64,000 nucleotides of DNA, taken from Candidatus Bathyarchaeota archaeon. GTDB lineage: Archaea; Thermoproteota; Bathyarchaeia; TCS64. A program made the translations under genes and the position numbers. Each line of letters begins with the position of its first letter. Position 1 is the stretch's first letter. Below the pieces are notes generated by a model. It was not told where the DNA came from. It searched no databases and was given only the letters and a program-made list of their open reading frames with translations. Location: the NCBI GenBank assembly GCA_020346605.1, contig CP070784.1, forward strand, positions 1,440,702 to 1,504,701. The letters are read 5' to 3'. This document shows positions 3,330-35,021 of the stretch, piece after piece.

Positions 3330-3392
3330 TCTCGCTGTTCTGTCAAGGACTCCGTTGTCTACTTTTAGAGCGCACACGTTGGCGGTCCATCC

Positions 3393-14067: not shown

Positions 14068-14237
14068 AGTCTTTAACCCTGCCCTAAATCGCGTTCTAAC
14101 CATATAAAACGATGACATCCAAGCTCCAGCTGAAGACTATCCACATGAAAGTCCTCTGCCTGCCCTGTGCGCGCAGACAAGATATTATACCTCGATTTAG
14201 TAGAATAGATCAGTCTGCGAAGCTGAACGTGCGTGAC

Positions 14238-14606: not shown

Positions 14607-14721
14607 ACCCTTTAGGGAGTCCAAGGGGCCGTAACCGGTATTTTTCAGAAAGCCTTAAGGGCGACCTTATAAAAATGACTACGGAATTACGTTGGCCTCA
14701 CTCAGGAAACCACTAGACGAG

Positions 14722-17701: not shown

Positions 17702-17958
17702 TCCTCCAATTCGACACGTTTTAAATTATGTTCTATTTTTTAGAGCTCCTATTCTCGTCTCTCCGGGCGTACCTCCTCTCGTAGCGGTAATGTTAACTAC
17801 AGGTGAAGGCGAAAAGTAAAACTCTTTCACGATTTTTTTACCCAGTGAAAGGCTTAAACTACGAAAAATAGTTAATTTTAAACCATTTCAGCGAGAATTG
17901 TTAAATATACAATCTAGTAAATTCTATCTGCAAGAAAAACAAGGAGACGTTTGAATAC
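17702..17958 (+). promoter_or_regulatory. AT-rich promoter/leader region for the B1-B4 membrane operon
   Basis: A 257-bp AT-rich gap in a GC-rich operon context. TATA-like TTAAATATA at 17901-17909. AAGGAG at 17941-17946, 12 nt before the ATG at 17959. Confidence 0.5.
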
Positions 17959-19409: not shown

Positions 19410-20258
19410 ATGTCTATACTGGATAGGATGCAGAACATCGACCGCCGGTATATCTACTTGGCGGGCTGGCTCTTCGTCTTATTCCCGCTCATGAATCCTC
19501 TTGGACTACCTGTACCCATCGGAAGGGAGTCCAGAGTCTGGTACCAGTACATCGAAGACATACCCAACGATAGCGTCATAATGTTCAGCATGGACTACGG
19601 TGTCTCGGGGATGCCCGAGCTTTACCCGATGACAGTCGCTACGATGCACCACTTATGGTCCAACGCACAGGCAAAGAACTGGAAGATAATCGTGATAGCC
19701 TTCTGGAACCAGGGACCACTCGTCTTCGACACGCTTCTGGGTCAGATAGATCCAGCCGAAAGGTACGGCGTGGTCTACGGTGAGGACTGGGTGGAACTTG
19801 GCTGGATTCCAGGTAGTGAGACAGGTATGGCGGCATTCGCAACTGACATATGGGGTCAGACCCCACGGGACTACCTCGAGGACAGACCCATCTCAGAATA
19901 CCCGATAATGGAGAACGTGAGGACGGCTGAGGACGTAGATCTCGTAATCAGCATAGAGACCGGTACGCCTGGCCTGCCCGAGTGGCTGCGCCAGTGGAAC
20001 GACCCCTTCGGCGTGCCCTTCATCGTGGGCTGCATCGGCGTATCGGTGCCCGGCATGGCGCCCTACCTGGCCTCGGGCCAGCTCTCGGCGCTGATGCCAG
20101 GCCTGACGTCGAGTGGTGAGTACGAGATACTGCTCAACAGACCCGGACTAGCCGTAGCAGGCCTCGACGCTGTGTCCATGTCCCACCTGCTGGTCGTATT
20201 TCTGGTGCTTATAGGTAACATCGCATACTTCGCCTCTAGAGGCAAGGAGGGCAGCTGA
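19410..20258 (+). CDS. B3: bitopic membrane protein with a central polar domain, family unknown
   Basis: ATG 2 nt after the B2 stop, with GGTGGAGGTGAGGAG upstream. N-terminal helix YLAGWLFVLFPLMNPLG and C-terminal helix LLVVFLVLIGNIAYFA. Paralog at 26169..27032. Confidence 0.7.
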   Translation: MSILDRMQNIDRRYIYLAGWLFVLFPLMNPLGLPVPIGRESRVWYQYIEDIPNDSVIMFSMDYGVSGMPELYPMTVATMHHLWSNAQAKNWKIIVIAFWNQGPLVFDTLLGQIDPAERYGVVYGEDWVELGWIPGSETGMAAFATDIWGQTPRDYLEDRPISEYPIMENVRTAEDVDLVISIETGTPGLPEWLRQWNDPFGVPFIVGCIGVSVPGMAPYLASGQLSALMPGLTSSGEYEILLNRPGLAVAGLDAVSMSHLLVVFLVLIGNIAYFASRGKEGS

Positions 20259-20259: not shown

Positions 20260-20970
20260 ATGTGGGAGCTAATTGGAATCTGGGCTGCGGTCTTCTTCAC
20301 TCTGGCGATCTACAGCTTCCTCTATGGCGAGAACCCCTGGTTCCGCCTCGCAGAGCACATCTACGCCGGCGTATCGGTGGGCTACTCCGTGGCCTTCAAC
20401 CTCGACTACCTACGTGACCAATGGGTAAACAAGTGGTCCCTAAATGGGACTCTGATGTTGCTGTACGTCATCGCCATCTTGTTCGGGCTCCTATGGTATG
20501 CCAGGTTCACGCGGGAGTACTTCTTTGCCTACCGCTGGACCCTGGCCATCATCGTAGGGACCGGAATCGGGATGGCGCTGAGGACGGTGATCTTCACGCA
20601 GTTCCTGAACCAGATTATCGCCCAGTCAAACCTCTCACTGTGGGTGGCCGGCGACATCATAGGGACTGTCAGCAACATACTGATCGCAATAATGGTACCC
20701 AGCGTGCTGCTCTACTTCTGGTTTACAGGCGGACAGCGCGAGACGGGCGGAATGTACTACGTCGACAGGATCGCACGCTACACAATGATGGCTGGCTTCG
20801 GAGCCGCCTACGGATACACTGTACTGACCAGGTACTCGCTGTTCATCGGACGTTCCCAGTTCCTGCTGGGGATCACGCCGAACCCACCGGAGGCGAGGAT
20901 GGCGTTTTACGTCATCGCCGGTGTGATACTGATAACGCTCATCGGAAGGGATTTCCTGAAGAGATCCTAA
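20260..20970 (+). CDS. B4: polytopic membrane protein (about 6 helices), family unknown
   Basis: ATG 1 nt after the B3 stop, with AAGGAGGG upstream. The conserved LRT.IFT.FL.QI segment is shared with the paralog at 25446..26156. Confidence 0.7.
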   Translation: MWELIGIWAAVFFTLAIYSFLYGENPWFRLAEHIYAGVSVGYSVAFNLDYLRDQWVNKWSLNGTLMLLYVIAILFGLLWYARFTREYFFAYRWTLAIIVGTGIGMALRTVIFTQFLNQIIAQSNLSLWVAGDIIGTVSNILIAIMVPSVLLYFWFTGGQRETGGMYYVDRIARYTMMAGFGAAYGYTVLTRYSLFIGRSQFLLGITPNPPEARMAFYVIAGVILITLIGRDFLKRS

Positions 20971-21007: not shown

Positions 21008-21198
21008 AACTGAGTACCCAGTGACGATCATGCAACATTAGCTAGGGGATGGCTCACCACCGTATAGGGCTTAGGACCAGCCGATGAAGTCACGGGGCCG
21101 ACCTGGGTCGGTCTCAGGGGCTCACAGCGTGTGTAGTCTCAGCATACATGTATAGGGATATACACCTTCAACCCCCCTTGAACCATGGTCGTACGGGG

Positions 21199-22275
21199 AT
21201 GGCTAGAGCAATCAAGGTAGCTGTGCTGCCGGGTGACGGCATTGGGCCGGAGGTGACGCGCGAGGCGGTCAAGGTCCTTACTGCCACGGGCCTCGACTTC
21301 GAGTTCATGGAGAGACAGGTGGGCGGAAAGGCGTACATCGAGACCGGCGACCCCCTGCCTGAGGATGCGAAGGAGGCCTGCGATGAGGCCGACGCCGTGC
21401 TCTTCGGCGCAGTGGAGCATCACTACGCACCCTACGGGATACCCAGGAAGGTCCTGATCTACCTCAGGATGGAGAAGGACGCTTACGCCAATGTCCGCCC
21501 CCTAAAACTCTACCCGGGCGTCTTCCCGAAGCACAGCGCCCCCACGTGGAAGGATATCGACGTGGTCATCATCAGGGACAACGCCGAGGGCTTCGCCCTC
21601 AAGCACGAGGGCCACCTCTGGGACGACATGGGCGTCGACAAGCGTGTGATCACGCAGCTCAGGGCGCAGCAGGTCAACATGTACGTCTATAACTACGCCG
21701 CTAAGCACGGCAGGAGAAAGATCACCTGCGTAGACAAGAGCACCTGGCTTTACGCAGATAGGCTCTTTAGGAGCGCCTTCAAGAAGGTCGAGGAGGCTTA
21801 CCCCGACATCGAGAGGGAGCACCTCAACGTCGACATCGCGGCGATGCTCCAGACCCAGGACCCAGGGCGGTTCGACGTCGTCATCACCCCTGACATCTAC
21901 GGCGACATCCTCTCCGGGGTTGTCATCGGCCAGATCGGAGGCCTTGGCATGGCCCCTTCTGCCTGCATCGGCGAGGATTTCGCTTTCTTCGAGCCGGTCC
22001 ACGGAACAGCCTGGGACATAGCCGGCAAGGGCGTCGCAAACCCCATCGCCTCCATCCTCTCGGCTAAGCTGATGCTCGAGTGGCTCGGAGAGGAGAGGGC
22101 CGCCCAAGCCGTCGAATCAGCTGTCAGCGCCGTTCTCGCTGAGGGAAGCGTGAGGACTCCAGACATCGGTGGGAGCTCAAACACCTCCGAGATGGGAGAT
22201 GCAATCGCCAGAAACGTCGAAACTGTAACACCCAGCTCGGTCGCAGAGCTGCAGAAGGTTGAAACGGACCAGTAG
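21199..22275 (+). CDS. isocitrate/3-isopropylmalate dehydrogenase family protein
   Basis: Start re-picked at MARAIKVAVLPGDGIGPEV (ATG at 21199). Family signatures DNAEGF, ITPDIYGDILSG and FEPVHGTAWDIAGKGVANP. Confidence 0.85.
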   Translation: MARAIKVAVLPGDGIGPEVTREAVKVLTATGLDFEFMERQVGGKAYIETGDPLPEDAKEACDEADAVLFGAVEHHYAPYGIPRKVLIYLRMEKDAYANVRPLKLYPGVFPKHSAPTWKDIDVVIIRDNAEGFALKHEGHLWDDMGVDKRVITQLRAQQVNMYVYNYAAKHGRRKITCVDKSTWLYADRLFRSAFKKVEEAYPDIEREHLNVDIAAMLQTQDPGRFDVVITPDIYGDILSGVVIGQIGGLGMAPSACIGEDFAFFEPVHGTAWDIAGKGVANPIASILSAKLMLEWLGEERAAQAVESAVSAVLAEGSVRTPDIGGSSNTSEMGDAIARNVETVTPSSVAELQKVETDQ

Positions 22276-22298: not shown

Positions 22299-23585
22299 TC
22301 AGTCTACGATCTGACCGACCAGGTAGCCGGTACCAGCCTCCGTCACCCTGACCTTTACGATCTCTCCCAGCTCCAGCGGCTCCTTGATCACGACCGGCTT
22401 GTAGGCGTTGTTCCTCCCCACCATCGAGCCGTCCCGGCCCTGCTCGTCGACGACCACCTCCCCCATCCACCCGATCCACCTGCGGTTGATATCCGATGAG
22501 AGGCGCCTCCATCGATCAGACATGCGCCTCGACCTCATCTTTGTCACCCGCCCGTGGTGCTGGCCCTCCATCGCTTCCGCCTCAGTTCCCGGCCTGGGCC
22601 AGAACCGTGAAATGTTGAGCACGTCGGGGACTACCTCCTCCACGAGCCGTATGGAGTCGTCGAACTGCCCATCCGTCTCCCCGGGGAAGCCGCAGATGAT
22701 GTCCGTGGAGAGGCTCAGGGACGGATAAGCGCCTCTGAAGGCCCCAACGAGGGCCCTGAAGGTGTCGACGGTGTACCTCCTGTTCATCGCCGTGAGGACG
22801 CTGTCGTTCCCGGACTGAACGGGGGCGTGGAGGAACTTGTAGACCTTCCCTGACCTGTAGGCCTCAAGGAGGTCGTCGAGGATGGAGCCCGCTTGGTTCG
22901 GCGTCATCATCCCTACTCGAATATAGAACTTCCCGTCCATGGCAGTGAGCTCCTCGAGGAGTCCGGGGAGGCGTGTGCCATTCCAGTGGTATGCGGCCGT
23001 GTCCTCGGCGGTGAGCCAGATCTCCCTGCAGCCCTCCTCCAAGGCCCTCTTGGCGTCCTCTACGATGAGGTCTGCCGGGTAAGAGTGGATGCGCCCCCTA
23101 GCCCTCTTAACTATGCAGTAGCTGCAGTCCCCGAGGCAACCTGTAGATATCGGGGCGATGTGGACGACGGGGTTTGCCCTCACCCTGGGAAGGCAGGTCC
23201 TCTCCGCAGGCCCTCTGCTGTTCTCCACGATCCTCTTGCCCCTAATAGCGGCCTCGACTGCGTCGACGATGCCGAGCAGGTCGTCAGGTCCCACCATGCA
23301 GGCGTCTGGCGCTGCCCCCTCAACGAGCTCCGGCTGGGCCTTTGGCATGCAGCCTGCGACCACCAGAGGCACCTTAGATGCGGATAGCTCACTGATGCGT
23401 TTCACCACTCGTTTCTCGGTGGGCGTTTTAACGGTGCACGTTAGAACGACTAAGGCGTCGGCGATCTCAGGCGAGCCCACGACAGTGTGCCCAGCTTGGT
23501 CAAGGAGCCCCGAGGCTATCTCGGCGTCGGCCTGGTTCGCGCTGCAGCCGAAGACCTCAACGAATACCCGCGCCAGGCCGACCAC
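22299..23585 (-). CDS. MiaB-like tRNA methylthiotransferase, archaeal MtaB/CDKAL1 type
   Basis: UPF0004 N-domain VFVEVFGCSANQADAE. Radical SAM CLGDCSYCIVK. C-terminal TRAM-like domain (VKVRVTEAGTGYLVGQ). GTG start at 23585. Confidence 0.85.
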   Translation of the reverse strand: MVGLARVFVEVFGCSANQADAEIASGLLDQAGHTVVGSPEIADALVVLTCTVKTPTEKRVVKRISELSASKVPLVVAGCMPKAQPELVEGAAPDACMVGPDDLLGIVDAVEAAIRGKRIVENSRGPAERTCLPRVRANPVVHIAPISTGCLGDCSYCIVKRARGRIHSYPADLIVEDAKRALEEGCREIWLTAEDTAAYHWNGTRLPGLLEELTAMDGKFYIRVGMMTPNQAGSILDDLLEAYRSGKVYKFLHAPVQSGNDSVLTAMNRRYTVDTFRALVGAFRGAYPSLSLSTDIICGFPGETDGQFDDSIRLVEEVVPDVLNISRFWPRPGTEAEAMEGQHHGRVTKMRSRRMSDRWRRLSSDINRRWIGWMGEVVVDEQGRDGSMVGRNNAYKPVVIKEPLELGEIVKVRVTEAGTGYLVGQIVD

Positions 23586-24084: not shown

Positions 24085-25203
24085 ATGGTATTAATGGAGA
24101 AGGCGCTGAGCTGGACACGCCACGAGGTGGACAGCAAGGGGCTTAGAAGACCCGGGGAGTGCAAGATCGTCATCATAGGCGTAGGTGGCTGTGGCAACAA
24201 CACCATTGACAGGCTCATGAAGTCTGGGATGAACGGTGCCGAGTGCATCGCCATAAATACCGACGTGCAGCACCTCAACAACATCCACGCTGACAAGAGG
24301 ATCCTCATCGGTGAGAAGATCACACGAGGCTTAGGCGCGGGGAACATGCCCAACATAGGCGAGGATGCGATGAAGGAGAGCTCTAACGTCATCGAGCGCC
24401 TCATCGAGGGCGCAGACATCGTCTTTATCACGGCCGGAATGGGCGGAGGCACCGGAACGGGTGCGGCCCCAGTGGTCGCCGAGCTCGCAAAGGAAAACGG
24501 CGCCATCGTCGTCGGCGTGGTCACCATGCCCTTCAGACACGAGAAGGGGCGCTTCAACTACGCCCGGGAGGGGCTCAACAAGATAAGGAAGACCACCCAC
24601 ACAACCGTCATCATCGACAACAACAAGCTGATGGACCTAGTCCCCCAGCTCCCCATAAACACGGCGTTCACCTTCGCCGACAGTATCCTCGCCAACATGG
24701 TGAAGGGGATCGTGGAGACCATAGCCCTCCCGAGCCTCATCAACCTAGACTTCGCAGATTTCCGCACCATAATGACCAAGGGAGACGTCGCCATCGTCGG
24801 CATGGGGCAGAGCAACAGCCCCGAGCGTGCTGAGGAGGCCGCCCGGAACGCCCTGGAGCACATGCTGCTGGACGTCGACTACGCGGGCGCAGACGGAGCT
24901 CTGATCCACGTCAGCGGTGGCCCAGACATGAGCCTCGGCGAGGCAGTACGTGCCGCCGAGTGCGTCACTGAGATGATGGACGACAAGGCGATGGTGATCT
25001 GGGGCTCCAGGGTCGACCCCGACATGAACGACATGCTCAGGGTCACTCTGGTCCTCACCGGGATCCGCTCCCCCCAGCTGGTGAGCGGCTACGAGGTCCC
25101 ACAGGTCAAGCTCTACCAGCTGGAGCCCTACGCCGGGCCCGAGAGAATCCTGGGACTGGAGCTAGGCCTCTACGACATGGAGAGCCCCTTCAACCTCGAC
25201 TGA
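24085..25203 (+). CDS. ftsZ: cell division protein FtsZ
   Basis: Tubulin/FtsZ signatures IIGVGGCGNNTIDRL, GLGAGNMPNIG and ITAGMGGGTGTGAAPVVA. Confidence 0.95.
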   Translation: MVLMEKALSWTRHEVDSKGLRRPGECKIVIIGVGGCGNNTIDRLMKSGMNGAECIAINTDVQHLNNIHADKRILIGEKITRGLGAGNMPNIGEDAMKESSNVIERLIEGADIVFITAGMGGGTGTGAAPVVAELAKENGAIVVGVVTMPFRHEKGRFNYAREGLNKIRKTTHTTVIIDNNKLMDLVPQLPINTAFTFADSILANMVKGIVETIALPSLINLDFADFRTIMTKGDVAIVGMGQSNSPERAEEAARNALEHMLLDVDYAGADGALIHVSGGPDMSLGEAVRAAECVTEMMDDKAMVIWGSRVDPDMNDMLRVTLVLTGIRSPQLVSGYEVPQVKLYQLEPYAGPERILGLELGLYDMESPFNLD

Positions 25204-25445: not shown

Positions 25446-26156
25446 TTAACCTGCTGAAAGTTTCTCTCCTAGGCCTGTCTTGTCGAAGACTATCGCTGCT
25501 ATCAGGCAGATCACTGCCGAGCCGACGGTGTAGGTCACCTTCCAGTCCGGCGTAGTCAGGCTCTCCATGTAACCGACGAAGAGCCCCAGCCTTCCCATGA
25601 ATGTCTGTGAGAAGATGGCCCCGAAGCCGATGTACATGAGGTACTCCCCTATCTTGGATGTCCAGAGGAGTGGTCCCGTGAGCTCCATGGTGTAGAGGAA
25701 GAACGTCAGTATCGTGACCACAGAGACCGCCACGGTGAGCCTGTAGAGGAACTCCAAGGGCACGCCAGTCCACAGCTTGACGATGGTCGCGTCTATCTGC
25801 CTGAGGAACGACGTGAAGATCTGTGTCCTGAGGGACAGGGCTAGGCCCGTCCCCACGGTGAAGGCCAGCGGTAGCCTCGAGATGTAGCTGTACGTGGGGT
25901 GAACCCTGAATAGCATCATTAACCCAAATATGATGGAGAAAATGAGGATCCAGTCCCCCGCCTGCATGCCGAGGATGGCTGTGTTCCAGACGTAGGTTAG
26001 GCCGATGACGATGCTGACGCCGGTAGCTGCACCCAGATATGAGAACTCCGCCCACGACCTCAGCGGGTTGGGCTTCCCATAGAGGGTCGTGTACATACAG
26101 AAGGATATGAAGATGCCGACTATTATAATGCTGAACTCCCAAAATTCAACTGCCAT
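25446..26156 (-). CDS. B4': polytopic membrane protein, paralog of 20260..20970
   Basis: Same length (236 aa) and helix pattern. Shares LRTQIFTSFLRQI with LRTVIFTQFLNQI in B4. Confidence 0.7.
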   Translation of the reverse strand: MAVEFWEFSIIIVGIFISFCMYTTLYGKPNPLRSWAEFSYLGAATGVSIVIGLTYVWNTAILGMQAGDWILIFSIIFGLMMLFRVHPTYSYISRLPLAFTVGTGLALSLRTQIFTSFLRQIDATIVKLWTGVPLEFLYRLTVAVSVVTILTFFLYTMELTGPLLWTSKIGEYLMYIGFGAIFSQTFMGRLGLFVGYMESLTTPDWKVTYTVGSAVICLIAAIVFDKTGLGEKLSAG

Positions 26157-26168
26157 TTCTTCATCCTC

Positions 26169-27032
26169 CTACCTGATTCCTGTCCTGTCCCTGTACGCTG
26201 TTTCTCGTGCCCATCCGTAGTGGCCGATGTTTCCGATCACGATGAAGGCCAACAGCATGTAGTGTCCTAAGGTGAACCCGTCCATCGCCTTTAGCCCCGG
26301 GCCAGGAGATCCGATGAGGAACTCCATTTCGGCTCCTCCTCTGGTGCTAGCCAGCACCGCGGTGTAGAGGCCGGCGTCGAGGTTCGCGAGGGCTCCTGGC
26401 ACCGACACGCCGATTGCGTTGACGATCATAGGCGTGTCGTAGGTCAGCACCATGTGCCTTACTATGTTTGTCGTGGCTAGTCCCGTCGTGTAGTCGCTGA
26501 TCATATCAAAGTCACCGGCGTTCTGCACGTCATCGAGGAAAGTCCCCTCGATCGAGTTCCCCTTCCAGTCGACCCTCACGTTGGCGTGGAAGTCCCCTGA
26601 CAAGGCTGCGACTGCAGCCTCGTTGGGCATTGTGTATCCGATGATGACGTAGTCCTCTCCCTCGGTATAGTCGTACCTGTCGAGCCAAGTACTTAGCTCC
26701 TTGAAGACGACATCGGGGATTGCTACACCCTCGAAGTGTCCGAACGCGATGATGAGCTTCACACCCTTCTCGATGAACATCTTGTGTGTGGCGAGTACTC
26801 CTGGCTTCAGCTCCATGTAGCCGCTGTACTCCATGTTCCAGGCGTCGAAGACGATGTCGCCCTCCTGCAGCGTGTTGATCTGGTTGTAATAGTGCTTCGT
26901 CATGGCGCTGACTCCGATGGGCATCCCGATCGGGTTGATCAGCGGTCCCAGAACGACGATGAAGAGGACGAGGTACACCCATCTCTTGTCGTATGTCGCC
27001 ATCAGCTTGAAGATTCCGCCTTCGTCGGCCAT
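26169..27032 (-). CDS. B3': bitopic membrane protein, paralog of 19410..20258
   Basis: Aligns by eye: DKRWVYLVLFIVVLGPLINPIGMP against DRRYIYLAGWLFVLFPLMNPLGLP, and AIGVSVPG against CIGVSVPG. The ATG at 27032 lies 1 nt after the B2' stop; the GTG at 27044 is an alternative start. Confidence 0.7.
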   Translation of the reverse strand: MADEGGIFKLMATYDKRWVYLVLFIVVLGPLINPIGMPIGVSAMTKHYYNQINTLQEGDIVFDAWNMEYSGYMELKPGVLATHKMFIEKGVKLIIAFGHFEGVAIPDVVFKELSTWLDRYDYTEGEDYVIIGYTMPNEAAVAALSGDFHANVRVDWKGNSIEGTFLDDVQNAGDFDMISDYTTGLATTNIVRHMVLTYDTPMIVNAIGVSVPGALANLDAGLYTAVLASTRGGAEMEFLIGSPGPGLKAMDGFTLGHYMLLAFIVIGNIGHYGWARETAYRDRTGIR

Positions 27033-27033
27033 C

Positions 27034-27678
27034 CTAACCCTCACCCTCCCCGAAGCCCAGGAACGCTACTTCCCTTCCCGTCAGCATGCGCACACCGAGG
27101 ACGATGGCGCCGATGCAGACGCTAATGGAGAACATCCTGGACACGGCCATTCCGAATGTGTCAGTGAGGTAGACCGCCGCCCCCTCGATCCCGGGGAAGA
27201 CGGCTCCCGTCAGCGGTGCCTGGTATAGGAGGACTATGAATCCGGCGATAAGCAGCAGTGCTGCATGGGGGCTCCGGGCTCTGAAGGCCCTGGCCCCTGC
27301 CGAGGCCATGTAGAAGGCGAGGATTCCGTAGATGACCGAGCTAAGCGGTGTCACCACTGCCTTGAGGAGCCAGTCATAGGCCCCTGCGTGCTGGCCAAAG
27401 ACGAAGCCGCTGAGGGTCATGATCACCAGCAGTACGAGGAGGTAGATGTGGTAGACCCAGCCTTTCCTCTTTTCGTTGATGAATCGGCCGCTCCTCCTCA
27501 GCTGTGAGTAGACGGCGATGACGATGGTGAAGGCGTTGGTTACAGCAGCGATGGTCATCAGCTTGCCTGAGAACCAGTCCAAAGGTCCCCACGGGACGAA
27601 GTACGGTACGAAGACGAGCAGGAAGGATACTACCAGTACGGAGATCTGCGCGCTCCGACTTTTAAAGAACGAAGACAT
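27034..27678 (-). CDS. B2': polytopic membrane protein, paralog of 18751..19407
   Basis: Shares SAGARAFRAR with SAAYRAFRAR in B2. Similar helix pattern. ATG at 27678. Confidence 0.7.
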   Translation of the reverse strand: MSSFFKSRSAQISVLVVSFLLVFVPYFVPWGPLDWFSGKLMTIAAVTNAFTIVIAVYSQLRRSGRFINEKRKGWVYHIYLLVLLVIMTLSGFVFGQHAGAYDWLLKAVVTPLSSVIYGILAFYMASAGARAFRARSPHAALLLIAGFIVLLYQAPLTGAVFPGIEGAAVYLTDTFGMAVSRMFSISVCIGAIVLGVRMLTGREVAFLGFGEGEG

Positions 27679-27689
27679 CACATTTCACC

Positions 27690-28484
27690 TCAAGTCGATA
27701 GTAGCCTGTTGATGATGTCGCTGCCCAAGTTGATCGCCACGAGCCCGAGTAGGATCGCGCCGATGGCGATGAACTTGTAGATGTCCTGCACGCGGATGCT
27801 CGCAATCTGAGCGGGGTTCCTTGAGAGGTATGCTCCCGCTGCGGGTTGCTCCTCACCCAGCATGATGTAGTCAGAGGCACAGGCGAGGGCGGCCATGTTG
27901 GATGTGTAGCACCCGGCGGTGATGGTGATGGAGTCGACGGCGTTGGCCATCTCGGCGATGTTCATCGCCTCGGACCAGTGCGAGCCTGTCATGATGGTGG
28001 TGCCCGGCCTCTCCCTGACGAGGATGCCTACGTATCCTGGTGTGTAAGCGTACTGCTCACCGCTCAGGAAGGGCATGTCCTCCTCGGTAAACTGCTCGGG
28101 CTTGCCTGCGACAGTGTAGGCGTTCCTCACAAGGTCGACGGCCGCCTCACGGACGATGTAGGAGTCGCTACTTCCGCCAGTCGGGACGACGAGTCTCGTG
28201 TCCGTCTCTGCACAGATCTTCGCCACGTAGCCGAGTATGCTGAGTCCGGCGATGGTCCAGTAGCTGAACCCACCGCAGCCGAATGAGCAGACGACGGGCT
28301 TCCCCATCTCGGTTGCCCTGCCAACAGCGTCTTCTATGGCGTCGAGGGCTGGTACACGGCGGATGTATGGAGCTTTCCCGGCGCTCATGTAGTTTATGGC
28401 AAGTACGAATATCAGTATCAGTAGTATTAGACCTAAGAGTCTTCCTTCAGCTAAACCTGGTATTGTGAATAATGCATCTGGCAT
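27690..28484 (-). CDS. B1': bitopic membrane protein, paralog of 17959..18744
   Basis: Shares IRRVPALDAIEDAVGRATEMGKPVVCSFG with IRRVAGIDAIDEAIGRAVEMGRPIICSHG, plus RERPG..IM.G and GEE...AGAYL. Confidence 0.7.
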   Translation of the reverse strand: MPDALFTIPGLAEGRLLGLILLILIFVLAINYMSAGKAPYIRRVPALDAIEDAVGRATEMGKPVVCSFGCGGFSYWTIAGLSILGYVAKICAETDTRLVVPTGGSSDSYIVREAAVDLVRNAYTVAGKPEQFTEEDMPFLSGEQYAYTPGYVGILVRERPGTTIMTGSHWSEAMNIAEMANAVDSITITAGCYTSNMAALACASDYIMLGEEQPAAGAYLSRNPAQIASIRVQDIYKFIAIGAILLGLVAINLGSDIINRLLST

Positions 28485-28746
28485 TGTAATTCACTTTTTA
28501 CCCGAGAGCAATATGATGTGTATGATTATAATAGATTAACGGTCAGTACTTACATACAATTTTATAAAAAAATGTAAATTATCATGTGTTTCAAGAGGGA
28601 ATAAACAGATCTTATTAAGTTTGAAACAGATAAATGACGTATATGCGGTTAAAAAAGGGGAATAATTCTAAGGTATTATGTGTTTTTAAAACAGTACCAA
28701 TGAGAATTCGAAGTTTATCCTTTTATCGTTGCGGTCAAGTTAGTTC
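28485..28746. promoter_or_regulatory. AT-rich divergent promoter region (B1'-B4' operon on the minus strand, pcm on the plus strand)
   Basis: A 262-bp AT-rich gap with TATA-like TTTTATAAAAAAA and ATTATAATAGA elements. Confidence 0.45.
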
Positions 28747-29433
28747 TTGAGGCAGTTAACCGTGTCGGTCCCAGACCACGGGCGCTTAAGGGAGGAGATG
28801 GTCAGGCGCTACGTGAGACAGGGCCATCTCGTCTCGACGAAGCTCGCGGAGTCGATGAGGAGGGTCCCGAGGGAGCTCTTCGTGGAGGCCAAGTTCGCCC
28901 ACCTCGCCTACTCCGACAGGCCAATACCCATCCCCCACTCCACTGGCGACTGGACCCCGCAGGCGTCCCAGTACCCCCTCTTCTATGAACCCCTCGACAT
29001 CCGGCAGGGGGATGTCCTCCTGGAGGTGGGCACGGGCTCCGGGTACGGCGCAGCTCTTGCCCGAGAGATGGTGGGACCGGGCGGGAGGGTAGTCACCATG
29101 GAGGTCGACGGGGAGGCATACCGGTTCACCAGGAGGTGCCTCGCCGAGGCTGGTTACACGGACGTCGTCGTTGTCAACGAGGACGGGTACAATGGCTTCC
29201 CCGAATTGGCGCCCTTCGACAAGATCTGCGTCACCGTTGCCTGTGAGAACATCTCTGGCGATCTTCTTCAGCAGCTGGAAAGACCTGGCAGACTCATCGC
29301 TCCCATAGGGTCGTCGACAGGCATCCGAGGTCAGGGCCTGACCCTCTTCAAAAAGGACGAGGACGGTGAGGTGACCAAAGAGACACTGGGCACGGTTATC
29401 TGCAGCCCACTACTTGGACATGAACGCGGCTGA
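28747..29433 (+). CDS. pcm: protein-L-isoaspartate O-methyltransferase
   Basis: MRRVPRELFV, LEVGTGSGYGAA SAM-binding loop, GRLIAPIG. Start uncertain: TTG at 28747, GTG at 28762 or ATG at 28798. Confidence 0.85.
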   Translation: MRQLTVSVPDHGRLREEMVRRYVRQGHLVSTKLAESMRRVPRELFVEAKFAHLAYSDRPIPIPHSTGDWTPQASQYPLFYEPLDIRQGDVLLEVGTGSGYGAALAREMVGPGGRVVTMEVDGEAYRFTRRCLAEAGYTDVVVVNEDGYNGFPELAPFDKICVTVACENISGDLLQQLERPGRLIAPIGSSTGIRGQGLTLFKKDEDGEVTKETLGTVICSPLLGHERG

Positions 29434-29449
29434 GCTCCCGTGTCCAGTC

Positions 29450-30211
29450 TCACCCTGTCCTTCTCTTGAAGATATCGAAGATGCCCCTCTTCTTTCCCGC
29501 CGCTCTCTCGGCAGCCGCAGCTACCTGCTCCATGCCTCGAAGGATGGAGGAGACGTCGACGTCGAGCCCAACGGTGCTGTTCAGAACCTCCACGATCGAG
29601 GTGACCCCCCGCCAGTTCGTCGCGCTTATTCTCCTCGTCGGGGCGAGGAGTCCCGTGAAGGTAACGCCCTTCCTCTGGCAGAGTTCAAGGAACGCTGCGT
29701 TCATGCCGGTTACGGCTCCGCTGGTGAGGGGGAGTACTCCCAGTCTGCCCAGCTCCGCGAGCTTCATCTGGTCGGTGGAGAATCCGACGACGCTGCCCTC
29801 CAATGTCTCGTCGGGCATGGGGAGGCCGTCCGTGGTCACGATCTCCTTGACGTTCCTCTGGACGAGCCAGTCCATCAGCCCCCTGATTACAGTCCTGTGA
29901 TGCTCCATGGGGATCGGCTGGTTGTCGACGACCACAAGTAGGTCGCGGTCCTCGTTCCCGTGGATCCTGAAGGGGGGCCTCATATCGGTCCCCATGACAA
30001 CGAACATAGGGGGGATTAGCTCGGATTCAATGTGGCCCAGCACCCTCATTCTGAGTGCGTCGGATATGAGCATGGCCGTCGTCTCACCAACGAAGCCTGG
30101 ACCGGGGAAGCCCGTGATCACCGTGGGCTCCTCGATCTCTATCGTCTCCTCTTCTATCACCTTCACTGTGTTGCTCAATTTATGCTCTCTCCGTGGCCAT
30201 CTGGCCCCCAA
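29450..30211 (-). CDS. PAC2-family proteasome assembly chaperone
   Basis: PTVITGFPGPGFVGETTA near the N-terminus and overall COG1938-like layout. Only TTG or GTG starts are available, so the start is uncertain. Confidence 0.7.
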   Translation of the reverse strand: MGARWPRREHKLSNTVKVIEEETIEIEEPTVITGFPGPGFVGETTAMLISDALRMRVLGHIESELIPPMFVVMGTDMRPPFRIHGNEDRDLLVVVDNQPIPMEHHRTVIRGLMDWLVQRNVKEIVTTDGLPMPDETLEGSVVGFSTDQMKLAELGRLGVLPLTSGAVTGMNAAFLELCQRKGVTFTGLLAPTRRISATNWRGVTSIVEVLNSTVGLDVDVSSILRGMEQVAAAAERAAGKKRGIFDIFKRRTG

Positions 30212-30277
30212 TTACTGGGTCGGATAACCGTTTAAGTCTTGATAAAATCTGGTCTATAAAACCAGCGTCTACAACGG

Positions 30278-30649
30278 CTAATCGGGCATTTCTGAGTTAT
30301 CCTCGGTGACTTCGCTGGCCCTTTCATCCCCAGATTCGACAGGAACGTCCCTCTGTTCTCCGAACAACTCCTTTGAGACCTGCCTGCTCAGCCTTCTCTT
30401 TGTGGCGTACGACACGTATCCGACGACCACAGCTACCAAGTTTAATGCGACGAGAAGCTGCAGGTATGTGTCGCCAATGTAGCCCATCATGAAGACGAGG
30501 TCGACCAGGATTGTCCCCACCATGATGAAGTCGAAAACGGCGAATATGAGGCGCAGATTCGGGGTCAACCTCTCCTTAAGGGCAGCCCGGAACTCCTCTT
30601 TCCTCTCTTTGATCTCATCTTCAGTCGGGCTCATGGCTTGTGCACACAT
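30278..30649 (-). CDS. small two-helix membrane protein, hypothetical
   Basis: Two hydrophobic helices (LRLIFAVFDFIMVGTILVDLVFMMGYI and LLVALNLVAVVVGYVSY). Its ATG overlaps the TAA of the upstream A0' gene (TAATG). Confidence 0.55.
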   Translation of the reverse strand: MCAQAMSPTEDEIKERKEEFRAALKERLTPNLRLIFAVFDFIMVGTILVDLVFMMGYIGDTYLQLLVALNLVAVVVGYVSYATKRRLSRQVSKELFGEQRDVPVESGDERASEVTEDNSEMPD

Positions 30650-31011
30650 TATTTCTTTTGACGATCTTTTTCGTCCTTCTTTTTCTTCTTAGTTTCTTTC
30701 TGCTTCTTCCTCTTCTCCATCTCAAGCTCGTCTATCCTGTCCAAAAGGCGGTTGAGGTTCTCCCTTCTCCTGAAGAGGGCCGTGACCTTCTCCACCCCGA
30801 AGAACTCGAGGTAGGGTCCAAGGAGGGTCATCCCCAGGTCGGCTCCCAGCTTCGAGATCGGGCTTATCGTCTCAAGGGTGAGCTGGGCCATGAGCCCCAT
30901 CTTGCGCTTGACAATGTTCTGGGCCAGCTTCTCGATCAGCTCGTCCTCCTCCTCCGGCGGCAGGTCGTCCCAGAGGTTCCATGCAGGTTTCGTGGGGTCT
31001 TTTATACTCAT
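30649..31011 (-). CDS. A0': small conserved protein with a poly-Lys tail, paralog of 14238..14606
   Basis: See A0. The C-terminus is EMEKRKKQKETKKKKKDEKDRQKK. It is transcribed divergently from A1'. Confidence 0.65.
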   Translation of the reverse strand: MSIKDPTKPAWNLWDDLPPEEEDELIEKLAQNIVKRKMGLMAQLTLETISPISKLGADLGMTLLGPYLEFFGVEKVTALFRRRENLNRLLDRIDELEMEKRKKQKETKKKKKDEKDRQKK

Positions 31012-31201
31012 CCCTTCACCCGTTTAAACTCGGCTTATGTTGCCTATTAAACCTAATCGAGGGGAAGGTCGACTGTAATTTTTGATTATCGGTCGTGTCT
31101 CAATTCTAGTTAAATAATCCGCATAATTTTGCCTAAAAAGGGAAATCCTTTTGACGATCCGTTTCATTCTTCAAGGGAACGCGGATGGGTGCGGATCTCG
31201 A

Positions 31202-33040
31202 ATGACACAGATAAAGCCTATCGGAGAGATGGAGTACATCCTCGCAACCGACGTAGGGAGCACCACCACGAAGGCCCGGTTCTTCATGAAGAGGGAGAAC
31301 GGCGAGTGGAGGTTCGTGGTCGCAGGTGAGACGCCGACGACCGTGGAGGCGCCTTACGAGGACGTCACCATGGGAGTCAAGAACGCCGTGAGAGAGGTCG
31401 AGGAGCTGACGGGCCATCGTATCCTCGCTGAGGACGGCGAAGGTATAATCACACCCTTCGACGGCGAGAGGGGGGTCGACCTCTACTGTACTACGAGCAG
31501 TGCAGGGGGCGGGCTGCAGATGATGGTCACAGGTGTTATCAAGAGGATGACAGGTGAGAGCGCGGAGAGGTCCGCCCTCGGAGCGGGGGCCATCGTCATG
31601 GAGATCTTCGCCACAAACGACAAGAGGCCCATCCACAGGAAGATCCAGCAGATCAGGAACCTGAGACCCGACATGATCCTCATGGCCGGGGGGACGGACG
31701 GAGGCACCATCAGCCACGTCGTCAACATGGCCGAGCTGATAAAGTCGGCCGACCCGAAGCCCCGGCTGGGGTCAATGTATAGTCTGCCCATCGTCTACGC
31801 AGGGAACCAGAACGCGACGGATCACATCCAGAAGCTCCTCGCCGACGAGTTCGCACTGAGCTGCATCGAGAACATCCGCCCCGTACTGGAGGTGGAGAAC
31901 ACTGAGCCCGCTAGGCGGGCCATCCACGAGCTGTTCATGGAGCACGTGATGAGCCACGCCCCCGGCTACGACAAGCTGATGAAGTGGACCGACGTCGACA
32001 TCATGCCGACCCCGGCCGGCGAGGGGATGGCGATGCAGCTCATCGCAGATCGCTTCAATAGGAACGTCCTAGGGGTTGGCCTGGGAGGGGCGACGACCAA
32101 CATCTACTCAATATTCGACAAGAGGTTCGTCAGGAGCGTCAGCGCCAACTTGGGTATGAGCTACAGCATCTGCAACGTGCTCAAGGAGACGGGCCTGGAG
32201 AACATCATGAGGTGGCTCCCCTTCGACATCGACCCGAGCGACGTCAGGAACAGGCTGAGGAACAAGATGATCCGGCCGACCACGATCCCGCAGACATTAC
32301 AGGAGCTCATAGTGGAGCACGCGGTGGCCAGGGAGGCCCTGCGCCTTGGTCTCGTCCACCACAGGTCCATCGCCACCACGCTGAAGGGCGTGAGGCAGGA
32401 CGTGGCATTCCTCAGGGGGATAACCACCCAGGCGATCGTCGAGTCCTACATCGACATGATGAAGATCGACATAGTCGCAGGCACAGGGGGCCTCCTGTCC
32501 CACGCGCCGAGGAGGGTGCAGTCGCTGATGATCCTGAACGACGCCTTCCAAACCGAGGGGGTGACGATGATGTTCCAGGATAGCGTCTTCATGATGCCCC
32601 ACCTGGGGGTCGTCTCCACGGTGCACAGGGACGCAGCATGGCAGATCTTCGACCTCGACTGCTTAGTGAGGCTCGGCACGATCGTGGCCCCGAGGGGGGA
32701 GACGGACCCCAGCGAGGCCGCCTTGGACGTGACCCTGGAGATGCCCAGGGGCGAGACACTCAAGGAGAGCCTGAAGGGGGGCGAGGTGAAGATGATCACC
32801 CTCCCAGAGCGCCAGGTGGCCCAGGCAATTATCCATCCCGGAAGGAACCTGGATGTCGGCGCAGGACCAGGCCAGGAGCTCAAGACGTCGCTCGAGGGCG
32901 GCGTCGTTGGATTAATGTTGGACACCCGGGGCAGGCCACTGGTGCTCCCGGAAGAGTTCGATGCCAGGAAGTCGGCGCTCTTAAGGTGGATCACCTCATT
33001 GGAGATGTACCCAGAGAAGAGGCTAACGGAGCTGTCCTAG
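31202..33040 (+). CDS. A1': double ASKHA ATPase, GlmL/MutL-like, paralog of 14722..16548
   Basis: Same motifs: ILATDVGSTTTKA, LMAGGTDGG, GVGLGGATTNIYS, IVAGTGGLLSHAP. Most aligned positions are identical to A1 by eye. The start is ATG at 31202 or 31229; the track uses TTG at 31151. Confidence 0.8.
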   Translation: MTQIKPIGEMEYILATDVGSTTTKARFFMKRENGEWRFVVAGETPTTVEAPYEDVTMGVKNAVREVEELTGHRILAEDGEGIITPFDGERGVDLYCTTSSAGGGLQMMVTGVIKRMTGESAERSALGAGAIVMEIFATNDKRPIHRKIQQIRNLRPDMILMAGGTDGGTISHVVNMAELIKSADPKPRLGSMYSLPIVYAGNQNATDHIQKLLADEFALSCIENIRPVLEVENTEPARRAIHELFMEHVMSHAPGYDKLMKWTDVDIMPTPAGEGMAMQLIADRFNRNVLGVGLGGATTNIYSIFDKRFVRSVSANLGMSYSICNVLKETGLENIMRWLPFDIDPSDVRNRLRNKMIRPTTIPQTLQELIVEHAVAREALRLGLVHHRSIATTLKGVRQDVAFLRGITTQAIVESYIDMMKIDIVAGTGGLLSHAPRRVQSLMILNDAFQTEGVTMMFQDSVFMMPHLGVVSTVHRDAAWQIFDLDCLVRLGTIVAPRGETDPSEAALDVTLEMPRGETLKESLKGGEVKMITLPERQVAQAIIHPGRNLDVGAGPGQELKTSLEGGVVGLMLDTRGRPLVLPEEFDARKSALLRWITSLEMYPEKRLTELS

Positions 33041-34195
33041 ATGTCAGAGAACAATGACGTAAAAGTGGCCAAGGAAGCCCACGCCTACACGCCCGGCCTA
33101 AAGATCATGAGGATCCTCAGGATAAGGAAGCTCAGAAGGCTCCCGATACCCGGGAAGGTCCTAGTCAATGTCGGCGACGAGGTCGACTTCACGACCCCCG
33201 TAGCGGAGGCGATGATACCCGGCGAACCCCACGTCGTGAACGCCGTTGCACAGCTGGGTGTAGAGCGGGTAGCCCTCGAGGAGTACCTGAAAGTCAAGGT
33301 CGGCGACAAAGTGAAGGAGGGCCAGGACATAGCGGGTTTTAACGCCCTCTTCGGGCTCTGGAAGAACTGGGTGAAGTCCCCCGTTGACGGTGAAGTCGAA
33401 ACGATCTCCACAGTTAGCGGTCAGATAATCATTAGAGAGGAGCCGGTGCCGGTGACCGTGGACTCCTTCATAAAAGGGAGGGTGACCGAGATCATGGCGG
33501 ACGAAGGCGCCTACATCGAGACTGACGCGGCTTACATCCAGGGCATCTTCGGCGTGGGCGGTGAAGCTCATGGCGAGATAAAGATAATCTCCGAAGATGT
33601 CGCCGAGCCCATAACTGACGCGCACATCACCGAGGATTGCAGGGGTAAGATCCTCGTCGGCGGCTCAATTATCACGAGGGAGGCCCTTCACAAGGCGGTG
33701 ACGACGGGTGTCGCGGGGATAATGACCGGTGGCATCATCGACGTCGACCTTGAGGACCTGCTGGGATACGAGATAGGCGTCGCCATCACCGGTCAAGAGG
33801 AGGTGGGCTTCACGCTGATGATCACTGAGGGCTTCGGCGAGATGGCGATGAACCCCAGGACCATCAGCCTGCTCAAGGAGTTCGAGGGGGAGAGGGCCGC
33901 CATCAACGGGGCCACCCAGATAAGGGCGGGGGTGCTCAGGCCCGAGATAATCATACCCCACAGCATGGAGATACAGGCAGAGGACGATGACGCCCTGGCC
34001 AGCGGCATGAAGCCGGGTACCAAGGTGAGGATAATCAGGGAGCCCTACTTCGGGGCCCTGGGGGCGGTGGTCAGCCTGCCCGTGGAGCTCCAGGAGGTCG
34101 AGTCCGAGTCCTCAGTGAGGGTCATAGAGATCGAGCTGGAGGACGGCAGCAGGGTCGTCGTCCCCAGGGCAAACGTGGAGATTATAGAGACTTAG
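33041..34195 (+). CDS. A2': barrel-sandwich-hybrid protein, paralog of 16550..17701
   Basis: The ATG immediately follows the TAG of A1'. Shares EAHAYTPGLK, RRLPIPGKVLV.VGDEVD, IQGIFG.GGE.HG, GVAITG.EEVG.TL..TEGFG and VPRANVEIIE with A2. Confidence 0.7.
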   Translation: MSENNDVKVAKEAHAYTPGLKIMRILRIRKLRRLPIPGKVLVNVGDEVDFTTPVAEAMIPGEPHVVNAVAQLGVERVALEEYLKVKVGDKVKEGQDIAGFNALFGLWKNWVKSPVDGEVETISTVSGQIIIREEPVPVTVDSFIKGRVTEIMADEGAYIETDAAYIQGIFGVGGEAHGEIKIISEDVAEPITDAHITEDCRGKILVGGSIITREALHKAVTTGVAGIMTGGIIDVDLEDLLGYEIGVAITGQEEVGFTLMITEGFGEMAMNPRTISLLKEFEGERAAINGATQIRAGVLRPEIIIPHSMEIQAEDDDALASGMKPGTKVRIIREPYFGALGAVVSLPVELQEVESESSVRVIEIELEDGSRVVVPRANVEIIET

Positions 34196-34241: not shown

Positions 34242-35021
34242 TTACTTGTGGGGCTTGCTCAGGAGGGAGCCCAGGTCCGCCCCCTTCAGCTCCTCAACGA
34301 ACTTGGCGACTGCCTCGATGTAGGGCTCCATCAGCTCCTTCCCCAGCTTCTCCGTGGCTTTGGTGGACTCCACGACGGTCCCGGCGGGGCCGAGGACGCC
34401 CGTCTCCGTGAGGTCGATGGTGTCCCAGGGGAACTGGGCCGGGCCTATGCTGTTGAAGCCCTTGATCTCCAGGGGGCCCAGCCTCTCCTTCTGCTTCGTG
34501 TCGACAGCCCTCTCCATCTTGACCAATTGCCTGTGGAAGTAGAGGTTCACGCTGGTCTCGCCGGTCCCGGCGTGCCCGCTTCCCATCGCCATCATCGCCG
34601 GCGGGAAGGCCATCATGACCGCGGCGAAGACGCCGTGCTCTCTCCTGAGTTCGCCCGCTACTTCAACAAGCGCGGCCGTGTTGCCGCCGTGCCCGTTCAC
34701 GATGAGTATCTTCTTTATCCCGTGGCTAGCCACCGCCAGTGCCGTTGCCTTCACGTAGTCCCTGAAGATCCTGGGCGGGACCCAGAGGGTGCCCGGGAAC
34801 TGCCTGTGGTGCTCAGAGACCCCCACAGGGATGACGGGGAGGACGGCGACGTTGGCCCTCTCGCCCACGTTCTTGCTCAGGGCCTCAGCGACGAGGTGGT
34901 CCGTCCCGAGAGGGTTGTGGGGTCCGTGCTGCTCCGTGCTGCCGACGGGGAGGATCGCCACGTCGGTCTCCTCGAAGAGCTCCTTGGCGTCGCTCCAGCT
35001 TATCTCGGGTAATCTTACCAT
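34242..35021 (-). CDS. creatininase-family amidohydrolase (paralog 1 of 3)
   Basis: VAILPVGSTEQHGPHNPLGTDHLVAEAL is the creatininase-family metal-binding signature. Confidence 0.85.
   Translation of the reverse strand: MVRLPEISWSDAKELFEETDVAILPVGSTEQHGPHNPLGTDHLVAEALSKNVGERANVAVLPVIPVGVSEHHRQFPGTLWVPPRIFRDYVKATALAVASHGIKKILIVNGHGGNTAALVEVAGELRREHGVFAAVMMAFPPAMMAMGSGHAGTGETSVNLYFHRQLVKMERAVDTKQKERLGPLEIKGFNSIGPAQFPWDTIDLTETGVLGPAGTVVESTKATEKLGKELMEPYIEAVAKFVEELKGADLGSLLSKPHK

Follow-up and report, generated by a model that had tools for sequence, protein, structure and literature searches.

A second, diverged copy of a two-module gene cluster for a predicted actin-fold ATPase and four membrane proteins in a Candidatus Bathyarchaeota genome

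A 64-kb stretch of the genome of a Candidatus Bathyarchaeota archaeon (contig CP070784.1; hereafter the window, whose numbering is used for all positions) carries two versions of a seven-gene set, and the second of them, at 25446-34195, is the subject of this analysis. The set consists of a module A, encoding a small protein (A0), a predicted ATPase (A1) and its partner (A2), and of a module B, encoding four membrane proteins (B1 to B4). Genes of copy 2 are written with a prime (A0' to B4') and those of copy 1 without. The region is almost certainly a genuine paralogous copy of a functional unit. Our best explanation, offered tentatively and with a little less than even confidence, is that it represents a second, anciently diverged (type 2) paralog of a widespread two-module system of ATPase and membrane proteins that would carry out ATP-driven solute handling.

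Each protein of copy 2 has exactly one paralog in the window, as detected by tblastn, and the paralogs form copy 1, which is colinear on the plus strand. The soluble pair is A1 (14692-16548; 69% identity to A1', E=0, z=391) and A2 (16550-17701; 55% identity to A2', E=1e-134, z=133), preceded by A0 (14112-14606, with homology beginning at about 14262; 30% identity to A0', E=4e-14, z=22). The membrane quartet follows as B1 (17959-18744; 35% identity to B1', E=2e-50, z=80), B2 (18751-19407; 29% identity to B2', E=3e-18, z=34), B3 (19410-20258; 27% identity to B3', E=8e-31, z=51) and B4 (20260-20970; 32% identity to B4', E=2e-23, z=28). Because hydrophobic proteins can inflate alignment scores, each Smith-Waterman score was compared with those of 100-300 shuffles, giving the z values above; the cross-family controls, B2 against B4 and B1 against B3, stayed below z=1. 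The preliminary description of this DNA had proposed that every component of copy 1 has a paralog in copy 2, and formal pairwise alignment bears this out for all seven pairs (27-69% identity, z from 22 to 391). Internal duplication among the seven families was considered and rejected: hhalign gave a probability of at most 9.6% for B1 with B3 and B2 with B4, and the families are not detectably related.

The ORF listing places the seven reading frames of copy 2 at the positions and on the strands originally assigned to them, the sole difference in coordinates being alternative upstream GTG or TTG starts for B3', B2' and A1'. On the minus strand are B4' (25446-26156), B3' (26169-27032), B2' (27034-27678), B1' (27690-28484) and A0' (30649-31011), and on the plus strand are A1' (31202-33040) and A2' (33041-34195). 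The junctions are as tight as had been reported, TAG-ATG at A1'/A2' and TAG-G-ATG at B2'/B3'. Two of the three genes said to separate the halves are confirmed by their Pfam matches: pcm, for protein-L-isoaspartate O-methyltransferase (28747-29433, plus strand; PCMT, E=5e-42), and a PAC2-family gene (29450-30211, minus strand; PAC2, E=1e-28), which lies between B1' and the third gene. That third gene (30278-30649, minus strand), which encodes a small protein with two transmembrane (TM) helices and adjoins A0', is also present, but it is not the mere spacer it was taken for: it is kept beside A0 in relatives (loci L081-L083 and L085-L087 of the comparative set described below). Its longest ORF, of 123 amino acids, starts on the stop codon of A0' (TAATG), and the NCBI call is 118 amino acids, from a start 15 nt further downstream. 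It has no counterpart in copy 1 and is probably an eighth component, conserved and specific to the copy-2 type.

The order on the minus strand is A0', the small TM protein, PAC2 and then B1' to B4', with pcm interposed on the opposite strand. A0', the small TM protein and PAC2 run in the same direction as B1'-B4', and the most suitable reading of copy 2 is a pair of divergent transcription units that flank the 190-bp intergenic region 31012-31201 between A0' and A1' (GC content 0.43), a candidate bidirectional promoter region, with A1'-A2' transcribed in one direction and A0'-small TM-PAC2-B1'-B4' in the other. pcm is missing from the same gap in L081, L083 and L085-L087, and in L085-L087 the interval between PAC2 and B1, where the window has the opposite-strand pcm, is about 580 bp of noncoding DNA. 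It looks as if pcm is a passenger inserted into the copy-2 membrane operon in this genome only. The PAC2 gene occupies the same position in L083 and L085-L087 and is absent from L081. A second candidate promoter region (28485-28746, GC 0.29) lies divergently upstream of B1' and pcm, and the 257-bp gap between A2 and B1 in copy 1 (17702-17958, GC 0.35) may hold an internal promoter for module B. We infer separate promoters for modules A and B because these intergenic regions are AT-rich (GC 0.29-0.43 versus about 0.58) and because the modules move independently.

The divergence of the two copies appears to be old. Copy 2 has many relatives far closer to it than copy 1: the top ones reach 96% (A2') and 98% (B1') identity, whereas copies 1 and 2 share 55% and 35%. 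The copy-2 layout is common to relatives with 73-91% identity in A2 (L081-L088, L090): A1-A2 on one strand; A0, the two-TM protein, PAC2 (in most) and B1-B4 divergent from them; and a creatininase-family gene convergent to A2. On these contigs no pcm precedes B1, and neither copy 1 nor ftsZ is nearby. The description of copy 2 as rearranged is correct as to layout, but a local or recent rearrangement does not agree with the relatives, which share it, so the arrangement is ancient. In neighbor-joining, midpoint-rooted trees of 21 complete units, window copy 2, L081, L083 and L001 form a clade both with A1+A2 and with B1-B4 concatenated. L001 (63% A2 identity) groups with copy 2 for all seven families, and L003, L004, L006, L007, L010, L011, L013 and L016 group with copy 1. 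The distance matrices of the two modules are correlated (Mantel r=0.58, p <= 2e-4), with mean distances of 0.41 for A and 0.71 for B, so that A is far more conserved. Independent origins of the modules, the outcome that would have spoken against co-duplication, are not shown by these phylogenies. Because the copy-2 clade is the same in both trees and the distances are correlated, the trees point to a whole unit that was duplicated, or a second that was acquired, long ago, with modules that have co-evolved since. In the B tree the type-2 quartet falls outside a group of archaeal type 1 plus bacteria, which may reflect accelerated evolution or a separate origin. Most sampled Bathyarchaeia genomes appear once among the best 80 loci, which suggests that a single copy is the common state in Bathyarchaeia.

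The family to which A2' belongs is large, with 435 clusters at 50% identity for E <= 1e-30 and 2382 for E <= 1e-3. A scan of one genome per species found more than 590 A2 loci, and the best 80 of these were used for taxonomy and synteny, each locus being given an L number. Among the best 80, the archaea are Bathyarchaeia, Methanomethylicia and Culexarchaeia, and the bacteria include Bacillota, WOR-3, Zixibacteria, Poribacteria, Cloacimonadota, Synergistia, Fermentibacteria, Latescibacterota, Armatimonadota, Dormibacterota, among others. In both domains, the A2 proteins of these 80 loci are about 50% identical to A2', and the nearest named relatives are from Bathyarchaeota/Bathyarchaeia. All public copies are annotated as hypothetical or DUF6754. 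When hidden Markov models of the seven families were mapped on these loci and on another 80, from metagenomes, that a B1 alignment had retrieved, all seven families were found together in dozens of loci from both domains. The view that the genes function together is supported by this recurrence in archaea and many bacterial phyla, and by natural fusions of A1 to A2.

The same survey strongly supports the proposed modularity. In every quartet the order is B1-B2-B3-B4 on one strand and none is permuted, and the quartet is placed as a block after A2, before A0, inverted, or about 3.5 kb apart. Some quartets are unlinked, and two or three tandem quartets accompany a single A module in nine loci (L021, L040, L079, L026, L073, L127, L156, L163 and L164). 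Module A can be multiplied too: four Bacillota loci (L019, L028, L035, L071) have a tandem A1*-A2*-A0-A1-A2 arrangement, with or without one B quartet, in which the first A2* is about 452 amino acids long, about 70 residues longer at its N-terminus. In L025, from Bathyarchaeota PFL18, two tail-to-tail A1-A2 pairs precede two head-to-head B quartets; both copies there resemble window copy 1 more closely than copy 2, and this two-copy arrangement is an independent one. As judged from these loci, modules A and B co-occur and co-evolve, yet can be separated and multiplied.

A1' matches the Pfam MutL/GlmL family (PF13941) over profile positions 1-447 of 450, with E=1.6e-114 and 383.6 bits versus a cut-off of 27. 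It falls below the NCBIfam equivalog models for GlmL (NF040745; 207 bits versus a cut-off of 475) and for the ornithine-pathway Or-4 protein (NF040744; 201 versus 600), and below TIGR01319 (148.9 versus 204). The nucleotide-binding motifs D17-x-G19-S-T-T-x-K24, G163-G-x-D-G-G168 and G295-G-A-T-T299 are invariant in 29-56 sequences from archaea and bacteria, and over both domains A1 keeps more than 100 residues unchanged and A2 about 70. A1 is a predicted ASKHA (actin-fold) ATPase of the GlmL/hydantoinase branch with all nucleotide-binding motifs kept, followed by a conserved C-terminal extension of about 130 amino acids. Since the stop and start codons of A1 and A2 abut and fusion proteins exist (P0250, 995 amino acids, and P0362, 1003 amino acids, which are independent and belong to distinct 50%-identity clusters), genomic evidence marks A1 and A2 as one functional unit, and the two proteins very probably form a complex.

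The membership of A1 in the MutL/GlmL family raises the possibility that A1-A2 is a chaperone or reactivase which, by analogy with GlmL and B12 reactivases, would use ATP to assemble, repair or exchange a ligand in a client, either the B complex or the Rossmann-like domain of B1, without powering any transport cycle. B1 would offer such a client, a cytoplasmic Rossmann-like domain of ligand-binding type, and a PAC2 gene, which is assembly-chaperone-like, lies inside the copy-2 operon in several relatives. We consider this explanation improbable. A1 scores less than half of the GlmL equivalog cut-off; Pfam and NCBIfam scans of the cluster and of the neighboring genes examined, which cover neighborhoods and not whole genomes, found no B12-binding or mutase family; the invariant residues of B1 include no DxHxxG-type corrinoid motif; and PAC2 is lacking in copy 1, in L081 and in the bacterial loci.

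A2' has no comparably clear relative. It crosses the Pfam cut-off for RnfC_N by a narrow margin (25.8 versus 25.6 bits), and matches to Biotin_lipoyl and NQRA_N are weak or marginal. In its AlphaFold2 (AF2) model (pLDDT 80), a barrel-sandwich hybrid comes first, followed by more beta domains, an alpha/beta domain (203-290) and, at the C-terminus, a KOW-like barrel. Foldseek returned domain-level matches alone, to NusG/Spt5 KOW domains and, at probabilities of 0.11-0.18 and TM-scores of 0.10-0.15, to RnfC and NqrA. As modeled, A2 is made of known small domains in an architecture without a PDB counterpart, and neither A1, A2 nor any of B1 to B4 gave anything significant in the PDB by sequence or profile search. 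In the model the tip of the hairpin is the invariant F104-G105 and not a DKA/MKM modification motif; the near-invariant K108 lies within the following strand, with a spacing to the next turn two residues under the canonical one. The NGATQIRAGVxR loop of A2 was inspected as a phosphohistidine motif of the PEP-utilizer type and rejected, being off consensus and having no histidine.

These features bear on the idea that the system pumps ions by redox or decarboxylation chemistry, in the manner of Rnf, Nqr or the biotin-dependent Na+ decarboxylases, with A2 as the peripheral subunit and B1-B4 as the ion-conducting arm. The marginal profile matches of the A2 N-terminal domain, the presence of RnfC and NqrA in its Foldseek list, the number of membrane subunits (four) and neighbors that release CO2 (GcvP, a pyridoxal phosphate (PLP) decarboxylase, and the isocitrate/isopropylmalate dehydrogenase gene after copy-1 B4) would all suit such a pump. 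However, the structural matches have very low probabilities and TM-scores, there is one invariant cysteine in A1 and none in A2, Fe-S and flavin motifs are absent, the B proteins are without matches in the Rnf, Nqr and Oad families, the hairpin tip is F-G, and the presence of an ATPase would go unexplained. A pump of this kind is highly unlikely.

A0' is a small soluble or amphipathic protein with a lysine-rich tail and no Pfam or NCBIfam match. The position of A0 varies: it is usually upstream of A1, but it follows B4 in L002 and L056, and in L155, which has no A1 or A2, it abuts B1. From this mobility A0 is probably an adaptor between the modules. Small membrane proteins other than the two-TM protein of copy 2 are encoded directly upstream of A0/A1 elsewhere, as a four-TM protein in type-1 archaea, a two-TM protein plus a domain in bacteria, and a domain plus two TM helices in Methanomethylicia and Culexarchaeia. 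No homology was detected among these three kinds, nor between the Methanomethylicia upstream gene and A0. We read them as repeated recruitment of membrane tethers for module A.

In module B, B1' is a bona fide member of Pfam DUF6754 (PF20539; E=1.3e-59, 201.9 bits versus a cut-off of 27); all of its close homologs carry precomputed DUF6754 matches, and bacterial homologs match at 1e-115 to 1e-123. Its AF2 model (pLDDT 88.7, pTM 0.83) places a Rossmann-like alpha/beta domain between one TM helix and a second, long one at the C-terminus. In bacteria, B1 proteins reach about 400 amino acids and have, before the first TM helix, a signal peptide and an FN3-like extracytoplasmic domain that are missing in archaeal B1 (examples are L040:11522-12718, L073:11352-12593, L026:15057-16316 and L062:11205-12404). 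This signal peptide and FN3 domain fix the predicted topology of B1: the chain starts outside, and its Rossmann-like domain is cytoplasmic. B3, judged from hydropathy and charge, would begin in the cytoplasm with a conserved RR, cross the membrane once, expose an extracytoplasmic domain of about 200 residues and end in a second TM helix, and its invariant residues are D127, G132, D155 and E237. B2 and B4 are polytopic, with about six and five TM helices by hydropathy, and B2 has a conserved RAFRAR motif. The B proteins keep few invariant residues, mostly charged, among them R42, R56, E59, D205 and E212 of B1, R130 and E203 of B2, and E37 and R94 of B4. B2', B3' and B4' have no Pfam or NCBIfam match, and with 33-38 members per family scanned at E <= 1 no consistent Pfam family emerged for B2, B3 or B4. 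None of the seven, or eight, proteins matches ABC_tran or a permease family. The four genes make up a membrane module of invariant order with domains on both faces of the membrane.

The genes that recur beside the clusters are for small-molecule enzymes, mostly of amino-acid or amide catabolism, and none is for cell division or envelope synthesis. In ten bacterial loci (L026, L029, L038, L047, L062, L063, L069, L072, L073 and L076), gcvT-gcvH-gcvPA-gcvPB lies directly upstream on the same strand, these being, by a hand count, about 10 of the roughly 23 bacterial loci in which an A0-A1-A2 block is preceded by sufficient sequence. Among the ten, the A2 proteins are mostly 50-60% identical to each other, with four closer pairs at 70-86%. 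Three loci from Methanomethylicia and Culexarchaeia (L009, L015, L017) share the block PhoU_div - PIN/KH ATPase - small two-TM protein - A1 - A2 - M55 D-aminopeptidase - PLP-dependent Orn/DAP/Arg decarboxylase, the last two genes being tightly spaced after A2. A LarA_N-like gene stands beside A2 in six loci, five of them archaeal, and in those five it is downstream on the same strand. In clusters of the copy-2 type, two kinds of creatininase-family paralog, 33% identical, alternate beside A2 (L081, L083-L087), and L083 has a creatininase-family gene on each flank; in L003, L004 and L011, tandem creatininase-family genes also precede the type-1 cluster, at a distance of 1-5 kb. In the window itself a creatininase-family amidohydrolase gene (34242-35021, minus strand; Pfam Creatininase, E=1.7e-66) is convergent to A2', and a second creatininase-like gene lies at about 52626-53009 (plus strand). 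The window has no homologs of gcvTHP, the M55 peptidase, the PLP decarboxylase or the LarA-like gene; its creatininase-family genes alone represent these neighbors.

The 4.5 kb that separate the two copies contain a gene for an isocitrate/isopropylmalate dehydrogenase (21148-22275, plus strand), a gene for a MiaB-like radical-SAM methylthiotransferase (22299-23585, minus strand) and ftsZ (24085-25203, plus strand), none of which is cluster-adjacent in relatives. The position of ftsZ between the copies could be taken to mean that A1 polymerizes on a B1-B4 platform in the service of the cytoskeleton, cell division or membrane remodeling. The actin-like ASKHA fold, a weak MreB-like_C match in one A1 homolog (0.0035) and a degree of conservation that recalls cytoskeletal proteins would agree with this. 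Yet ftsZ adjacency is absent from the relatives L081-L087 and from every other locus, A1 belongs to the GlmL/hydantoinase branch and not with MreB, ParM or crenactin, the recurrent neighbors are catabolic enzymes, and several B quartets per A module are ill-suited to a scaffold. We regard a cytoskeletal role as very improbable.

The catabolic neighbors can also be explained by metabolic coupling alone, in which A1-A2 would be a soluble, ATP-dependent enzyme like the hydantoinases and oxoprolinases, with a cyclic amide or amino-acid derivative as its substrate, and B1-B4 an independent secondary transporter or membrane enzyme of the same pathway. The A1 family is related to GlmL and to Hydantoinase_A (a PF01968 match of 5.9e-05 in one Bacillota homolog), A1-A2 often occurs without a nearby B quartet and B without A, the neighbors (gcvTHP, M55, the PLP decarboxylase, the creatininase family and LarA-like genes) are soluble catabolic enzymes, and extreme conservation such as that of A1 and A2 is typical of enzymes. 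Against it, the tight coupling of A0 and of unrelated small membrane proteins to module A suggests membrane tethering, the A and B distances are correlated, one A module with two or three B quartets would be unusual for an enzyme and its permease, and A2 has no recognizable catalytic fold. On balance this simpler arrangement is rather unlikely, and it is probable that A and B act together at the membrane.

We present the following hypothetical mechanism for an ATP-driven two-module system. Module A would be cytoplasmic, with the A1 ATPase working as a unit with A2, and A0 together with the lineage-specific small membrane proteins would probably tether A1-A2 to the membrane. The B proteins would form a four-protein membrane complex of about 15 TM helices, in which B1 contributes a cytoplasmic Rossmann-like domain, B3 an extracytoplasmic domain, and B2 and B4 the polytopic core. 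A0 and the small membrane proteins, perhaps with the cytoplasmic domain of B1 as well, may dock A1-A2 onto this complex, and ATP turnover by A1-A2 may be coupled to the movement or processing by B of a small nitrogenous solute of amino-acid or glycine catabolism. Because it evolves fast and several versions can accompany one engine, module B would set specificity, and the slowly evolving module A would act as their common engine; copies 1 and 2 may then serve different substrates or conditions. The parts of this proposal differ in standing. ATP-driven solute handling linked to amino-acid catabolism is possible but doubtful. The most specific form, a new class of primary active membrane machine in which an ASKHA ATPase-A2 engine, in place of a P-loop, P-type or rotary ATPase, docks through A0 or small adaptors onto interchangeable B modules that set its specificity and feed amino-acid (for example glycine) catabolism, is unlikely to be right as it stands.

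Several observations weigh against ATP-driven solute handling by the combined modules. Physical contact between A and B is hypothetical, and the modules are frequently apart: 10 of the 24 informative B-centered loci have no A1 or A2 within at least 7 kb on both sides; A1-A2 pairs in Methanomethylicia and Culexarchaeia have no B quartet within 10 kb; and in Poribacteria, WOR-3 and Stahlbacteria A2 has unrelated housekeeping genes as its sole neighbors. No B protein resembles a known transporter by sequence or profile, and the fold of B1 is generic, its Foldseek matches being Rossmann-like folds alone (SIS, Moco-carrier/SLOG, RCK, USP; best E=0.014). To our knowledge, no primary transporter uses an ASKHA ATPase, and the closest characterized relatives of A1, the GlmL accessory protein and the hydantoinases/oxoprolinases, are soluble. 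The metabolic neighbors vary by lineage, and no glycine riboswitch or other Rfam element was found in seven gcv-linked loci.

The stand-alone B quartets have no recurrent neighbor family. The A2-only loci were considered as a source of alternative partners and rejected, their neighbors being the unrelated housekeeping genes already mentioned. Immediately downstream of A2 in two of these loci are a 2-oxoacid-dehydrogenase E1-beta-like gene (WOR-3, L020:11118-12059) and accA (Stahlbacteria, L048:11125-12908). The E1-beta, accA and GcvP enzymes work with lipoyl or biotinyl barrel-sandwich domains, and the proximity of such genes to a lone A2 may be coincidence.

Elsewhere in the window, a radical-SAM protein (11884-13035, plus strand) and a zinc-ribbon protein (13495-14118, minus strand) are encoded upstream of copy 1. 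The sole Rfam element found in the window is a tRNA-Val (6483-6560). Positions 1-4000 have a G+C content of 0.46-0.52 versus about 0.55-0.64 elsewhere and are possibly a foreign or atypical segment.

The carrier lineages, including Bathyarchaeia, Zixibacteria, WOR-3, Poribacteria, Cloacimonadota and Fermentibacteria, are abundant and mostly uncultured anaerobes whose metabolism is inferred largely from annotation. Because their carbon and nitrogen metabolism is known mainly in this way, a conserved machine linked to genes of glycine cleavage and of peptide or amino-acid metabolism represents a real gap. If it is true that the ATPase powers a membrane process, the system would embody a new principle of energy coupling; failing that, it would still define a conserved pair of enzymes and a membrane complex of four subunits, both of them new. 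The diverged copies, the A1-A2 fusions and the multi-quartet loci lend themselves to module-swap tests of specificity. DUF6754, a Pfam family without assigned function, gains a topology, a fold class and a fixed place as the first gene of a four-gene membrane module. We found no description of the cluster in the full-text literature searched, which covers few subscription journals, and a mention in, for example, the arCOG 'dark matter' surveys is possible.

By its predicted features the system is classified as fitting no known kind of system, with A0, B2, B3 and B4 as orphans and a function that is proposed by inference. GlmL/MutL proteins (PF13941, NF040745, NF040744) share with A1 the strong Pfam match, the ASKHA core and amino-acid catabolic neighborhoods, but A1 lies far below the equivalog cut-offs and has the extra C-terminal domain of about 130 amino acids. 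Unlike GlmL, A1 is always paired, and sometimes fused, with A2 and accompanied by four membrane proteins, and in the neighborhoods examined no B12 mutase genes are adjacent to it, neither glmS/glmE nor an ornithine or lysine aminomutase context. The ATPase subunits of hydantoinase A, 5-oxoprolinase and acetone carboxylase (PF01968, PF05378), a group of ATP-dependent enzymes that act on cyclic amides or small carbonyl compounds, belong to the same ASKHA sub-branch, and cyclic-amide hydrolase (creatininase-family) genes lie near the archaeal clusters; however, the Pfam match is marginal and limited to one homolog, and in place of a Hydantoinase_B-type partner there is A2, with an unrelated architecture. 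A1 does not belong with MreB, ParM or crenactin, its best families being MutL and Hydantoinase_A, and there is no conserved linkage to division or shape genes.

For A2, the resemblance to RnfC, NqrA and biotinyl or lipoyl carriers does not go beyond the N-terminal barrel-sandwich hybrid domain and the alpha/beta domain after it. In contrast to these proteins, A2 lacks Fe-S and flavin motifs, its hairpin tip bears no modifiable lysine, and its membrane partners are not homologous to theirs, B1-B4 giving no match to RnfA/D/E/G or NqrB-E in Pfam, NCBIfam and PDB scans that included 33-39 members per family. At its C-terminus, A2 has a KOW-like barrel instead. That barrel and a DII-like barrel-sandwich segment align with NusG/Spt5, but A2 has no NGN domain. 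In genetic logic there is an analogy with modular transporters of the energy-coupling factor (ECF) type: one conserved cytoplasmic module is combined with one to three divergent membrane modules, linked or unlinked. The components are nonetheless different from those of the ECF and ATP-binding cassette (ABC) transporters, with no P-loop/ABC ATPase and no homology to EcfT or S-components, and the engine would be a predicted actin-fold ATPase instead.

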